Of a DNA stretch of 4,063 nucleotides, positions 1 to 4,063 are shown one piece after another. The DNA is from a virus (Duplodnaviria > Heunggongvirae > Uroviricota > Caudoviricetes). A program made the position numbers and the translations under genes. The notes beneath the pieces are model-generated. The model was not told the origin of the DNA, did not search any database, and saw only the letters and a list, made by a program, of their open reading frames with translations. Positions within the stretch are counted from its first letter, which is position 1. Each line of letters opens with the position of its first letter. The DNA lies in the IMG/VR virus record IMGVR_UViG_2778261543_000002; one strand, written 5' to 3'.

Positions 1-223
1 ATTCTTCTTTGGTGTAATCGCTGGTTTTTACCCGCCCGTCGATTAAATCGTGGCATGAGCTACAGGCAATTGCCGCCTGCATATCGTGTGGTTTTGTCGC
101 TGTTCCACACGTCCCCGCCAGCCTGTAATGCGCCAGCACGGACGTTTCGGGATTGTGATTGCAGTAGCCAGGAATTCTGACTGTACACATCTGACCTTTT
201 GCCGCTTTACGTAAATCCACCAT
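1..223 (-). CDS. DUF1364-family (YbcO-like) cysteine-rich phage protein, N-terminal 74 codons; 3' end lies beyond the left edge
   Basis: Minus-strand ATG at 223..221 opens a frame that stays open to position 1: MVDLRKAAKGQMCTVRIPGYCNHNPETSVLAHYRLAGTCGTATKPHDMQAAIACSSCHDLIDGRVKTSDYTKEE. The Cys pattern and the VRIPG.C..NPETSVLAH / IACS.CHD motifs match my recollection of DLP12 YbcO-type nin-region proteins. The start overlaps the stop of the upstream gene (TAATG). Not in the ORF track because it is partial. Confidence 0.6.
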   Translation of the reverse strand, partial: MVDLRKAAKGQMCTVRIPGYCNHNPETSVLAHYRLAGTCGTATKPHDMQAAIACSSCHDLIDGRVKTSDYTKEE

Positions 224-822
224 TACGCAAACTCCAGCAGCTGCGCGGCCACATTTTCGACTTCCTCCGGAGAGGAGAATTTACGGAACAGGATCCAGTT
301 CCACAGCACATTCAGTACGGCTTTATAAACCTGCTGAAACTCGGTTTCGTCCATATTCGCAAAAGCGATGGATTTCGCCCGACGCCCGTGGCTACCGTCC
401 GGATAAATATGCTCGGTGTAAAATCCGGCCTGAATGGTTACCCACTCGCGGAAAGCGTCAAACGACTTTAGCAATGCCGTATCCCGGGTTCTGCGTGTTG
501 CAACTGTATTCAGATATTGCTCTGCGGCTTCGCTCAGAGCTGGCTTATGTTCCCGACCTACTGATTCGCACAGGTAATCAACGAAACCAGACAGCAGTTC
601 TCGCTCGCGAGGCGTGATCGCCCCACCGACCGGAGTCCAGTAATCGAATCCCAGTTGCAGGAGTTTGAAAAAACGCTTGTGGAATGCGTAGTTACGCACA
701 CGCTTAAAGTCTGCGTGTATCCACTCACCTATTTTGATTTGATGCAAAAAATCGCAACTCTCCGGCGTCGCCGGGAGAAGTAATCCGGAAGAGGTTTGTT
801 TGACCAGTTGTATATGCGCCAT
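223..822 (-). CDS. DUF1367-like lambdoid phage nin-region protein (199 aa)
   Basis: Track ORF 223..822. ATG at 822..820 is preceded by GGAG with a 7 nt spacer (minus strand ...cagcGGAGaactacgATG). The MAHIQLVKQTSSGLLLPATPE...FHKRFFKLLQLGFDYWTP N-terminus resembles DUF1367 proteins as I remember them. Stop TAA at 225..223 shares one base with the downstream ATG, suggesting translational coupling. Confidence 0.7.
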   Translation of the reverse strand: MAHIQLVKQTSSGLLLPATPESCDFLHQIKIGEWIHADFKRVRNYAFHKRFFKLLQLGFDYWTPVGGAITPRERELLSGFVDYLCESVGREHKPALSEAAEQYLNTVATRRTRDTALLKSFDAFREWVTIQAGFYTEHIYPDGSHGRRAKSIAFANMDETEFQQVYKAVLNVLWNWILFRKFSSPEEVENVAAQLLEFA

Positions 823-1741: not shown

Positions 1742-1875
1742 TTTTTTATTGCCAGCACCTTCTATCCAGGCTAATTTATCTGCGTCAGAACGGCGCAATG
1801 CGCTCGCCTGAGATACGTTTACTTGCCATGGTAACAACAGGTAACGGCAATTGTTGTTTCTGTTTTGTTTCCTTC

Positions 1876-1906
1876 AAAAACCCCGGACCATCAATCCGGG
1901 GTTTTT
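1876..1906. terminator. bidirectional rho-independent terminator (terminates the upstream minus-strand operon)
   Basis: aaaaa-CCCCGGA-ccatcaa-TCCGGGG-ttttt: a 7 bp GC stem flanked by an A-run and a T-run, so either strand gives hairpin plus U-tract. Sits 86 nt downstream of the 273 aa gene stop. Confidence 0.6.
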
Positions 1907-1911
1907 GTTTG

Positions 1912-1962
1912 TTAACCCCAACGGCAAATCGAATACACCACCAGCGCCACCGCCATCACCAT
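1912..1962 (-). CDS. candidate micro-ORF, 16 aa hydrophobic peptide MVMAVALVVYSICRWG
   Basis: Minus-strand ATG at 1962 (second ATG at 1956 has AGGA 6 nt upstream), stop TAA at 1914..1912, between the 273 aa gene stop and the terminator. Very short and GGTG-rich, so it could be chance. Confidence 0.15.
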   Translation of the reverse strand: MVMAVALVVYSICRWG

Positions 1963-1991
1963 TCCTACCGTTGCGAATGCTTCAGGCCAGG

Positions 1992-2813
1992 TCATCGTAA
2001 AATATCCTCCACACCTACCAACCCGTTCTGCTTCAGATATTCCATCGCCTTATCAGGCAAGCTGCTTAAACTATTGGCGTACTTTAAGGAGTGAGCCAGA
2101 CGCTTAACCCACATTGTTAATTCGCTAACCTGGTTACCTGGCACTGGCGACGCTACTGTCTGTTCCAGAACGTCATCAGGTACTACCGGCTCTACTGCCA
2201 ACTGACTGGCATATTTGTTAATGGTAACGATAAGCTCTTGCTCGGCCTCATCCAGACAATCACCAACACCTCGCCTGTCACCGTCAAAATCATCGAAATC
2301 GGCACGAATCCTGGCAACCTTCAGGATTGCGGACAACACCTCACTAGGAATTGCCGGATAGTTGGTTGACGTTTCCGCGATTTCCCGAAAATTATTGGTT
2401 GACGAATTCTTGTTTTCCCGAAAGTTTCCGGACTGAAGCATGGCGGCGCGGCAGGCGTTCCATATTTCGGCAGCAATATCGCGCTCGCTATCGGTTAATT
2501 TGTACGTGGAAACATAGCCAGAGAGCATTTCTACGTTTTCCGGAGTTGCTTCTTCCGGCACTACCGGCGCTGGCGGGGCGATGCGTCCAAGCAACTTATT
2601 TACCTCTTTCGCCATCGCGTCATATTTATCTAAATGGCGATTAGCTTCTAAGCAGACTCGGCGCATCTGATCTGAGTTAACTCGTTTAACTGGATCTGCT
2701 TCCAGCGATGCCAGCGCAATCCGTGCCAGTTCCATTTGTTCACCACGGGTAAGCCCGTTTTCAAGCGGATTTTTAATGAACAATTCAATACGTTCTTTGG
2801 TAATAGTGGTCAT
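1992..2813 (-). CDS. hypothetical acidic phage protein (273 aa) with internal repeats
   Basis: Track ORF 1992..2813. ATG 2813..2811 preceded by AGGAG with a 6 nt spacer; that SD overlaps the TAA stop of the upstream 87 aa gene (TAAGGAG). Contains an 11 aa tandem repeat (FRENKNSSTNN / FREIAETSTNY) and two PVVP[ED][ED]-type segments. No family recognised. Confidence 0.8.
   Translation of the reverse strand: MTTITKERIELFIKNPLENGLTRGEQMELARIALASLEADPVKRVNSDQMRRVCLEANRHLDKYDAMAKEVNKLLGRIAPPAPVVPEEATPENVEMLSGYVSTYKLTDSERDIAAEIWNACRAAMLQSGNFRENKNSSTNNFREIAETSTNYPAIPSEVLSAILKVARIRADFDDFDGDRRGVGDCLDEAEQELIVTINKYASQLAVEPVVPDDVLEQTVASPVPGNQVSELTMWVKRLAHSLKYANSLSSLPDKAMEYLKQNGLVGVEDILR
2361..2427. repeat. 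imperfect ~33 bp tandem direct repeat inside the 273 aa CDS
   Basis: Unit 1 (2361-2394) gttggttgacg-tttccgcga-tttcccgaaa-atta; unit 2 (2395-2427) ttggttgacg-aattcttgt-tttcccgaaa-gttt. The 10 bp blocks TTGGTTGACG and TTTCCCGAAA are each repeated exactly; GTTTCCG also recurs at 2372-2378 and 2424-2430. Confidence 0.6.
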
Positions 2814-2823
2814 GTGTTACTCC

Positions 2824-3087
2824 TTAACCCGCAGTGCTTTCAACTGATGAGGGGAACAAAATCCTTTCATCAAATCCGGCATTCATATCATGGACAGCAA
2901 CACACCAATCCATCGACGAACGATTATCAAGAGCCTCCATGATTTCATCCATGCGGCGCAGGTCATACAGGTAAATGCTTTTATCGCCAATGGTGTAAAA
3001 GCCAATTTTTTTCGGTGATGGACAGCGATCAAGAATTTCCTGTAATTCGTTCAACCATGCCCGTTCTTTTTTTGTCAAAGTTGCCAT
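2824..3087 (-). CDS. hypothetical protein (87 aa)
   Basis: ATG at 3087..3085 with AAGGA 8 nt upstream (track ORF 2824..3165 extends further but lacks an SD at its first ATG). Product MATLTKKERAWLNELQEILDRCPSPKKIGFYTIGDKSIYLYDLRRMDEIMEALDNRSSMDWCVAVHDMNAGFDERILFPSSVESTAG. Packed tightly between the 72 aa and 273 aa genes. No family recognised. Confidence 0.7.
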   Translation of the reverse strand: MATLTKKERAWLNELQEILDRCPSPKKIGFYTIGDKSIYLYDLRRMDEIMEALDNRSSMDWCVAVHDMNAGFDERILFPSSVESTAG

Positions 3088-3088
3088 A

Positions 3089-3307
3089 TCAGTTTTCCTT
3101 ATACGGATTAATTTTATTGTGCAGTGTGTTGAATGACGCCCATACCACGTCGTTATACAATTCAATAACTAGCTCAATTATTTTTCCGATTATCCAGACT
3201 AGGATTAACGGGGATATCGGTATCATCAACACGATAAACAGAATAAGAAACAGAAATTCTGTTGTTCTACTCTTTCGCGGATATTTTTTTCTAAATAATG
3301 TGACCAT
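3089..3307 (-). CDS. putative small single-pass membrane protein (72 aa), AT-rich gene
   Basis: Track ORF 3089..3307. Basic N-terminus (MVTLFRKKYPRKSRTTE) followed by one hydrophobic helix (FLFLILFIVLMIPISPLILVWIIG), i.e. positive-inside topology. Stop TGA sits 1 nt before the next ATG. Caveats: the region is visibly AT-rich and no clear SD precedes the ATG, so a chance ORF in a promoter region is not excluded. Confidence 0.45.
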   Translation of the reverse strand: MVTLFRKKYPRKSRTTEFLFLILFIVLMIPISPLILVWIIGKIIELVIELYNDVVWASFNTLHNKINPYKEN

Positions 3308-3313
3308 TCATCA

Positions 3314-3329
3314 CCGCCCTTTCGGGCGG
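3314..3329 (-). other. GC-rich GNRA-tetraloop hairpin in the intergenic region between the 70 aa and 72 aa genes
   Basis: Minus RNA GGAGG-CCGCCC-GAAA-GGGCGG-ugaugaAUG: a 6 bp GC stem with GAAA loop, immediately 3' of a GGAGG and 7 nt upstream of the 72 aa gene ATG. Not followed by a U-run, so not a classical terminator. Confidence 0.4.
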
Positions 3330-3339
3330 CCTCCTGACA

Positions 3340-3552
3340 TTAATCGTTGTGATAACTCATAGCTTCATTTGCAGCATCAACTGGATCAACCTCCCTCCAG
3401 CAATAATTTGGGTCGGCTCCTTCAGGCGTCCACGGTTCTAATTCATTTTTTGCCGCATTCTCATCGCCAGTAATTTTAAAAATCTGCTCAGAGAATTTTC
3501 TTGCCCACTCGTTATATTTTTCCGCATTAATGGCTTTCTGTGTATTTAACAT
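3340..3552 (-). CDS. hypothetical protein (70 aa)
   Basis: Track ORF 3340..3552. ATG 3552..3550 preceded by GGAGG with a 7 nt spacer. Product MLNTQKAINAEKYNEWARKFSEQIFKITGDENAAKNELEPWTPEGADPNYCWREVDPVDAANEAMSYHND, acidic and soluble-looking. No family recognised. Confidence 0.7.
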   Translation of the reverse strand: MLNTQKAINAEKYNEWARKFSEQIFKITGDENAAKNELEPWTPEGADPNYCWREVDPVDAANEAMSYHND

Positions 3553-3602: not shown

Positions 3603-3959
3603 TTATTCAGTTCTGGATTTTGTCACCCTGCGTATCCGCGCTTTCGCGTTACGCTCAATCTGAATTAACTTTTCTATATTTTTTCGCCTTTCCCGCTCCT
3701 CCTGACGCAAGAGCCTTACATCATCTGCCAGTCTGGTTTCTCTTTTCGCCACAGAGAGCATCCAGTCAAATGGCTCCACAACTGCACCGCAGATTTTACA
3801 GCGGACCTGACGCTCTTTTTCGTCAACCCGGACAGAGGCGTGATGACAATATGGTCTTTCCGATGGCTCATAAAGAAAATTAACCTGATTACGAGGGTCA
3901 TCCTCTTTTACCGGAAATAAAACAATATTACTTAACTCATCTTCTGGTTTTATTTCCAT
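3603..3959 (-). CDS. hypothetical zinc-ribbon-like protein with basic helical C-terminus (118 aa; 132 aa if ATG 4001 is used)
   Basis: Track ORF 3603..4001. The internal ATG at 3959..3957 has a strong SD (AAGGAGAGGAGc-ATG). Product has C-H-H-x13-C-x2-C (YCHHASVRVDEKERQVRCKIC) and an Arg/Lys/Glu-rich tail (RLADDVRLLRQEERERRKNIEKLIQIERNAKARIRRV). The ATG at 4001 overlaps a TGA of another minus-strand frame entering from the right edge (ATGA), so the longer form is possible. Confidence 0.7.
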   Translation of the reverse strand: MEIKPEDELSNIVLFPVKEDDPRNQVNFLYEPSERPYCHHASVRVDEKERQVRCKICGAVVEPFDWMLSVAKRETRLADDVRLLRQEERERRKNIEKLIQIERNAKARIRRVTKSRTE

Positions 3960-4063
3960 GCTCCTCTCCTTTGATATGAATGCCAGCAACACGTAGTTCA
4001 TGTTCTAAGGAAGGTGCGAATAAGCAGGTCATTTCTTCCCAAGCTGACTCGCTGATTAAAATT

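Follow-up and report, generated by a model that had tools for sequence, protein, structure and literature searches.

The 4,063-nucleotide (nt) stretch analysed here (the window), from the IMG/VR virus record IMGVR_UViG_2778261543_000002 (Caudoviricetes), carries on its minus strand a run of three genes coding for proteins of 72, 87 and 273 amino acids (aa), at positions 3089..3307, 2824..3087 and 1992..2813, respectively. A first-pass annotation had read them as a single undescribed accessory cassette, and the three open reading frames (ORFs) and both of the junctions between them are present as it claimed. The 72-aa and 87-aa genes meet in a TGA-t-ATG at 3091..3085, the ATG of the latter occupying 3087-3085 rather than starting at 3086. 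The TAA of the 87-aa gene (2826-2824) is embedded in TTAAGGAG, the Shine-Dalgarno (SD) sequence of the 273-aa gene, with 10 nt to the ATG at 2813. We further identify a minus-strand gene for a 27-aa hydrophobic peptide (MTWPEAFATVGMVMAVALVVYSICRWG) at 1912..1995, between the 273-aa gene and a terminator-like hairpin; its start codon and the stop codon of the 273-aa gene overlap as ATGA, and the SD sequence GGAGG lies upstream. Consecutive genes of the block are joined by coupling signals, namely TGA-t-ATG, stop-in-SD and ATGA. On comparing related loci, however, the apparent cassette resolves into independently shuffled genes: all of its parts are catalogued, very common phage families, and the three-gene unit was too narrowly drawn.

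The 72-aa product is a full-length member of the Pfam family DUF4014 (PF13198), its residues 1-72 aligning with positions 1-72 of the 72-position model (E=3.7e-25; 88.5 bits against a gathering threshold of 23.2). It likewise matches phrog_1832 (E=1.4e-44) and shows no structural difference from the family, of which our literature searches found no mention. Hydropathy supports the earlier description of a peptide with a basic N-terminus (RKKYPRKSR) and one hydrophobic span, the best 19-residue window being 19-37 with a mean Kyte-Doolittle value of 3.0; a C-terminal tail of ~30 residues follows. Because the basic N-terminus precedes the single hydrophobic span, DUF4014 is predicted to be an N-in inner-membrane protein with its tail on the opposite side. 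The gene is AT-rich, as had been remarked, with a GC content of 0.34 against 0.43 and 0.48 in the neighbouring 87-aa and 273-aa genes; its GC content at third codon positions (0.425), however, equals that of the 87-aa gene (0.42). The low GC is an effect of amino-acid composition, and a foreign origin of the gene, considered on account of it, is rejected because the third positions match those of the neighbour. Of 5426 complete E. coli genomes, 982 carry DUF4014, at 1516 places.

The DUF4014 gene is preceded on the minus strand, at 3313..3335, by AGGAG and an 18-nt hairpin with a GNRA tetraloop (GCCGCCC-GAAA-GGGCGGU; dG -19.9 kcal/mol, z -3.1), with a further 5 nt to the ATG. The same leader hairpin can follow either of two different upstream genes, and DUF4014 alleles that lack it carry an ordinary AAAGGAG SD sequence 5 nt from the start. 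The hairpin is part of the DUF4014 module and moves with the gene. One possibility is that it brings a distant SD sequence within range of the start codon, as is known for a hairpin at gene 38 of phage T4. Alternatively, it may mask the SD-like GGGCGG or the start site.

Contrary to the earlier statement that the 87-aa and 273-aa proteins match nothing, both have abundant relatives. The 87-aa protein matches phrog_1714 over its entire length (residues 1-87 of 87; E=3e-50) and is 57.5% identical to Orf-87 of Salmonella phage ST64T, a long-standing annotation. The family is marked by the motifs C22-P-S-P, GFYTIGD, LYDL and FPSxVESTAG, with C22, P23, G29, G34 and Y41 invariant in 64 sequences. 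Its homologues form 130 clusters at 90% identity, and a profile search of 1.84 billion representatives recovered 211 clusters at 50% identity, nearly all of them free-standing and 80-90 aa long. The few longer members lack any Pfam domain and resemble read-through fusions with neighbours. These homologues come from phages and prophages of Enterobacterales, Vibrio, Aeromonas and Yersinia; among the 5426 complete E. coli genomes, 979 have the gene, at 1196 places. The protein is acidic and soluble, and structure modelling gives it a confident α/β fold that has no known structural neighbour.

The 273-aa protein is a mosaic member of the P22 EaA family. Over residues 1-46 it shares 83% identity with P22 EaA (E=1e-23 by BLAST; E=4e-15 by tblastn), and it contains the conserved EaA N-terminal segment MTTITKERIELF...ELARIALASL, along with multiple partial PHROG matches. 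The EaA relatives of this protein amount to more than 7760 clusters, named ‘Eaa protein’ or ‘DUF551 domain-containing protein’ in their sources; its exact sequence is rare, being found on only three contigs. P22 EaA and most close relatives have a DUF551 domain (PF04448), which a Pfam search at E<=1 did not find in the 273-aa protein. Its relatives of ~298 aa that end in DUF551 match it with 96% identity over residues 1-225, but in place of DUF551 the 273-aa protein has a 48-aa helical tail, a module also found on other proteins (phrog_660 and phrog_924). The protein is built of an EaA N-terminal segment, helical modules, Pro-rich linkers and the 48-aa tail. Its family follows a beads-on-a-string pattern, with short helical modules inserted, deleted or swapped between conserved Pro-rich or ‘CRAAMLQSGN...NSPVIP’ linkers. 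This exchange of whole modules at the linkers suggests intragenic recombination that keeps the reading frame. AlphaFold gave a poor model of the 273-aa protein (pLDDT 47), made up of short helices and low-confidence linkers, which is consistent with a modular, flexible protein; for this reason the model was excluded from fold comparison. A sequence search of the PDB, which includes the Ea22 C-terminal domain, gave no match at E<=1. As a separate observation, APPAPVVPEE, WNACRAAMLQSGNFRE...STNxPxIP and EPVVPDDV recur as linkers in the EaA family.

Some relatives of the 273-aa protein are labelled as Ea22; we rejected this assignment for the protein itself, which has no PF13935 match and reaches only E=4.5 in BLASTP against lambda Ea22 and P22 EaD. 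Scans of the 87-aa and 273-aa proteins against Pfam, NCBIfam and PADLOC found no functional domain, only a weak sub-threshold DUF1843 match and, in NCBIfam, nothing above noise. Our literature searches on DUF551 and EaA found no functional study. Homology of either protein to a characterised replication or recombination protein, which the first-pass annotation had named as an outcome that would speak against it, was not found.

The 27-aa gene, recognised by its sequence, its SD sequence and its pattern of variation, overlaps C-terminal tails of the 48-aa type via ATGA in 33 of 103 loci. Its DNA occurs in 1252 of the 5426 E. coli genomes, often without annotation, although RefSeq sometimes annotates it. 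Variable sites in the block genes lie mostly at third codon positions, and dN/dS across alleles from related loci is 0.19 for the 72-aa gene (45 alleles), 0.09 for the 87-aa gene, 0.19 for the 27-aa gene (30 alleles) and 0.23 for a 70-aa gene that precedes DUF4014. All block genes are, in other words, real coding sequences under purifying selection, and the synonymous-biased variation bears out the 72-aa ORF in particular, on whose conservation the cassette proposal had been made to depend.

The hairpin that closes the block before hok/sok lies at 1875..1907 (dG -25 kcal/mol with flanks; z -3.3). It is terminator-like, being flanked by an A-run to one side and by a T/U-run to the other, and could terminate transcription in both directions. 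The strong bidirectional terminator of the earlier description is to that extent present, but it follows the 27-aa ORF and not the 273-aa gene. The upstream limit of the three-gene unit is arbitrary: the gap between the 70-aa and 72-aa genes is 32 nt, has neither promoter nor terminator, and its hairpin lacks a U-run; the 70-aa gene and the 118-aa gene before it are equally contiguous with the rest. A scan of the window for sigma-70 promoters, by consensus only, found no such site on the minus strand upstream of 3307, 3552 or 3959; in the whole window it gave 5 sites against 7.3 expected, none of them before the block. Of the two marks of a moron, its own promoter and a terminator, the block has the terminator at 1875-1907. 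Since no sigma-70-like promoter was seen before the block, there is no indication that a lysogen expresses it, as a role in exclusion or abortive infection would require.

The genes are only loosely linked across loci. Our IMG/VR adjacency counts are drawn from the 80 closest loci per anchor gene. Anchored on DUF4014, the next gene is the 87-aa gene in 16 of 77 loci, the EaA N-terminus directly in 5 and some other gene in 56. Seen from the 87-aa gene, DUF4014 lies upstream in 67 of 80 loci and the EaA N-terminus follows in 62 of 79. Around the EaA-type gene, the 87-aa gene precedes in ~30 of 80 loci and is absent in ~50. The co-occurrence of the three genes that had been suggested as a check is thus not borne out. 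Among the complete E. coli genomes, the DUF4014/87-aa junction is intact in 581 (120-nt probe) and the 87-aa/EaA junction probe in 750, and in otherwise collinear E. coli prophages the third position, the slot of the 273-aa gene, holds different proteins. None of eight distant homologues of the 87-aa gene has DUF4014 upstream, its place often being taken by an Ead/Ea22-type protein; in six of the eight an EaA-type modular gene lies one or two genes downstream. The 87-aa gene followed by EaA is the one association that extends beyond the closest relatives.

The coupling signals, in turn, belong to the mobile units. The end of the 87-aa gene, ...STAG-TAA, makes a TAAGG(A/G) SD sequence for any gene that follows, as seen in four genera. 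Taken together, the linkage data fit independently exchangeable genes with conserved joints rather than a three-component system, and each gene of the block is a mosaic unit that can be exchanged on its own.

The same families recur in other phages and at other positions. The exo-xis region of the Stx phage ArgO145 groups DUF4014 with the zinc-ribbon gene, the 70-aa gene and EaA/Ea22-like genes, though in a different order and with an HNH endonuclease gene after DUF4014; in the ea region of ST64T, orf-87 is followed by eaa1. These families further occur in leftward exo-xis/ea regions in Edwardsiella, Tatumella and Serratia, while a rightward-side position is found in the present prophage and in Klebsiella. 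In a P2-like Pectobacterium prophage the 87-aa gene stands directly after the replication gene A, without DUF4014 or EaA. Virulent Chi-like Salmonella phages have an 87-aa homologue, ~71% identical, that is followed by an unrelated 237-aa protein, again without DUF4014 or EaA, a distribution that implies the exchange of genes across the divide between temperate and virulent phages. Among these Chi-like members is gp45 of Salmonella phage BSPM4 (2501-2764 of its locus). Unrelated proteins of 81 and 74 aa follow 87-aa homologues in the P2-like prophage and a Salmonella contig. In E. coli EPSSH018 and in a phage-plasmid, the 87-aa gene is intact and the EaA gene after it is a shortened pseudogene fragment. 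In the phage-plasmid, the E. coli O104:H4 plasmid NZ_CP022085.2 (3000-4330 of the locus), these form a tandem of 87-aa gene, EaA fragment, 87-aa gene, EaA fragment and DUF551 gene, which looks like the product of unequal recombination at the conserved EaA 5' segment.

The window, a contig of the NCBI draft assembly GCA_002229875.1, is of E. coli prophage type. Its best matches among complete genomes are 96% identical and cover at most 81% of it because the region is mosaic. Comparison with collinear E. coli prophages points to a Rac/Qin-like lambdoid prophage as the setting, with the minus strand of the window corresponding to the rightward early operon. The collinear prophages show a cro-like helix-turn-helix gene, ydaT, replication genes (ydaV), DUF1627 and DUF977 ahead of the block, and hok, an 83-aa gene, DUF1367, DUF1364 and DUF1133 after it. 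The location between replication and hok/nin-type genes is an accessory one, as the first-pass annotation had it; what is not supported is its view of the three genes as one undescribed system. In transcription order, the window itself has a zinc-ribbon gene, the 70-aa, 72-aa, 87-aa, 273-aa and 27-aa genes, the terminator, hok/mok, the 83-aa gene and DUF1367. Among the surroundings of the 87-aa gene, the order zinc-ribbon, 70 aa, DUF4014, 87 aa and EaA is seen most often.

The zinc-ribbon gene (3603..3959, minus strand) codes for a 118-aa protein of phrog_1621 (E=2e-55) with a zinc-ribbon-like CxxH...CxxC segment, a weak Zn_Ribbon_TF match and then a long basic helix, and heads a block whose gene order many E. 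coli prophages share. A 132-aa ORF (3603-4001) had been listed here; its ATG at 4001 has no SD sequence, and the real start is most likely the ATG at 3959, which has the SD sequence GGAGAGGAG upstream and coincides with 357-nt genes called by RefSeq. The 70-aa gene (3340..3552, minus strand) encodes an acidic protein of phrog_4659 (E=3e-50) and adjoins DUF4014 in many loci. Beyond the terminator, the hok/sok neighbour noted earlier is confirmed by hok/mok at 1382-1594 (Pfam HOK_GEF, E=3e-23). The 83-aa gene is rem by the annotation of a related Rac phage record. The DUF1367 protein (223-822, minus strand; Pfam E=3.5e-97) is grouped by PHROGs in phrog_319, whose label, taken from PHROGs alone, is ‘NinB/Orf homologous recombination mediator’. 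We also observe 94% identity between this region and the record PP818812.1, ‘Actinobacillus phage vB_Apl-pPE4’, with hok, DUF1367 and ydaT among the matching genes; because the region is of E. coli prophage type, the Actinobacillus pleuropneumoniae host label of that record looks doubtful.

The best reading of these observations is that the locus represents a slice of the hypervariable early accessory (‘ea’-type) array of a Rac/Qin-like lambdoid prophage. We put at roughly 0.7 the probability that its genes are independent mosaic early accessory genes that form no dedicated three-gene system. The slice consists of the DUF4014 single-span membrane protein with its own 5' hairpin/SD module; the acidic α/β 87-aa protein, whose last codons and stop supply the SD sequence of the next gene; the P22 EaA-family protein of shuffled modules, with a 48-aa helical tail for DUF551; and the 27-aa hydrophobic peptide, followed by the terminator. 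Transcription of the block would depend on read-through from the early promoter and would take place only once the phage has infected a cell or been induced. No catalytic domain can be recognised in the proteins, which are therefore probably binders, presumably non-essential and non-enzymatic, of host or phage proteins or of the membrane. By analogy with Ea22, Ea8.5 and Orf63 of the exo-xis region, they may tune host physiology or the lysis-lysogeny course early on. The conserved gene ends and the EaA N-terminal segment would serve as recombination joints that loosely link neighbours.

Several points weigh against this reading. The locus sets, being the 80 closest relatives of each query, are biased toward collinear contexts. 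In 77-78% of cases, some of them in Edwardsiella, Klebsiella, Serratia and Tatumella, the 87-aa gene has an EaA-type gene after it; this exceeds chance adjacency and could mean that the two work as a pair. The promoter scan covers the sigma-70 consensus only, and what it suggests about lysogen expression comes from sequence. The role proposed for DUF4014, Orf-87 and EaA is drawn from analogy, and no homology between the 273-aa protein and lambda Ea22 can be detected.

The most substantial rival takes the 87-aa and EaA-type proteins to be a functional pair, the former acting as partner, adaptor or regulator, with DUF4014 as an unrelated neighbour. Their fixed 10-nt spacing, their adjacency in the 62 of 79 viral loci and in 750 of the 979 E. 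coli genomes with the 87-aa gene, and the conserved stop-in-SD junction all speak for such a pair, as does the persistence of the order at 57-70% protein identity in ST64T, Edwardsiella, Klebsiella, Serratia and Tatumella. Yet the 87-aa gene also travels without EaA, since the 71% identical homologues of the Chi-like phages precede the unrelated 237-aa protein and those of the P2-like prophage and the Salmonella contig the 81- and 74-aa proteins. The converse also holds, for the 87-aa gene is missing from ~50 of 80 EaA loci, and P22 has the unrelated EaI in its place. The intact 87-aa gene beside shortened EaA pseudogenes in the phage-plasmid and EPSSH018 likewise tells against a pair, and the linkage can be explained as well by the EaA 5' segment acting as a recombination joint. 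We therefore consider a functional pair unlikely, though the least improbable of the alternatives.

Two further readings, which make a system of DUF4014 and its neighbours, carry far less weight. The first-pass annotation had envisaged a three-gene cassette for defence, superinfection exclusion or abortive infection with the membrane peptide as effector, in keeping with the replication-nin interval as a known site of accessory genes, the small membrane protein, the tight coupling of the genes and the adjoining hok/sok. A search of PADLOC-DB 2.0, of the kind it had proposed, gave zero families at E<=1 for the six proteins tested. The three genes are not inherited together, the third being replaced in collinear prophages, no promoter-like site for lysogen expression was found by the scan, and the same genes occur in the early lytic operons of Stx phages and, in the case of the 87-aa gene, in virulent phages; a defence cassette is on this evidence very improbable. 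We give equally little credence to the idea that DUF4014 is a small membrane toxin and the 87-aa protein its acidic antidote, in the manner of a toxin-antitoxin pair. It draws on the succession, 1 nt apart, of a basic, hydrophobic peptide (pI 9.7) and an acidic, soluble protein (pI 4.9), on the presence of DUF4014 before the 87-aa gene in 67 of 80 close loci, and on a distant 87-aa relative that is fused to a different upstream membrane protein. Obligate co-inheritance is not what the loci show: 61 of 77 DUF4014 loci have no 87-aa gene downstream, DUF4014 occupies more places in E. coli than the 87-aa gene (1516 against 1196), none of the eight distant 87-aa homologues has DUF4014 upstream, and the 87-aa gene occurs alone in virulent phages. 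Nor was an autoregulated promoter seen in the sigma-70 consensus scan.

The reading of the locus as an array of independent early accessory genes carries a correction of wider use: when genes of a phage early operon are tightly coupled in translation, this cannot be taken as evidence that they form a functional system. The families involved are very common, with DUF4014 and Orf-87 each in ~18% of complete E. coli genomes and EaA in thousands of clusters. What retains value of its own is the Orf-87 family, for its confident predicted fold without a known relative, its spread over temperate and virulent phages and its frequent linkage to EaA. To this may be added the conserved but usually unannotated gene for the 27-aa membrane peptide, and the conserved hairpin between SD and AUG at the start of DUF4014, which could control its translation.

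One of the closest known systems is the ea region of P22-like phages (eaD-eaI-eaA-eaG in P22; orf-87, eaa1 and eaa2 in ST64T), where, as in the block, the early genes are small, non-essential and closely packed. The 273-aa protein has the EaA N-terminal segment in common with P22 (83% over 46 residues), and in ST64T the Orf-87 gene lies 10 nt before eaa1, a spacing identical to that between the 87-aa and 273-aa genes. The arrays differ in position, being in the rightward early operon between replication and nin-type genes here and in the leftward operon beside xis/int in P22-like phages. They differ also in content: P22 lacks DUF4014 and has the unrelated EaI in the position of the 87-aa gene, and its EaA ends in the DUF551 that the 273-aa protein is without. 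Compared with lambdoid morons and small-membrane exclusion genes, the block likewise lies in a variable accessory region, ends at a terminator and includes small membrane proteins; unlike them, it has no promoter-like site of its own that we could find, consists of genes that are part of the early operon and coupled in translation there, and matches no exclusion or defence model. The exo-xis region of lambda and Stx phages (Ea22, Ea8.5 and Orf60a/61/63/73) has a modular mosaic architecture in common with the block, even though lambda Ea22 itself has no detectable sequence homology to the 273-aa protein. Ea22 variants combine a conserved N-terminal segment with variable C-terminal domains, including DUF551 (PMC10834534). 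Deletion of ea22 lowers host survival and alters lysogenisation, the effect of Ea22 being pro-lysogenic (PMC7093339), and Ea22 and other exo-xis genes affect the choice between lysis and lysogeny as well as host survival (PMC7093339, PMC10834534).

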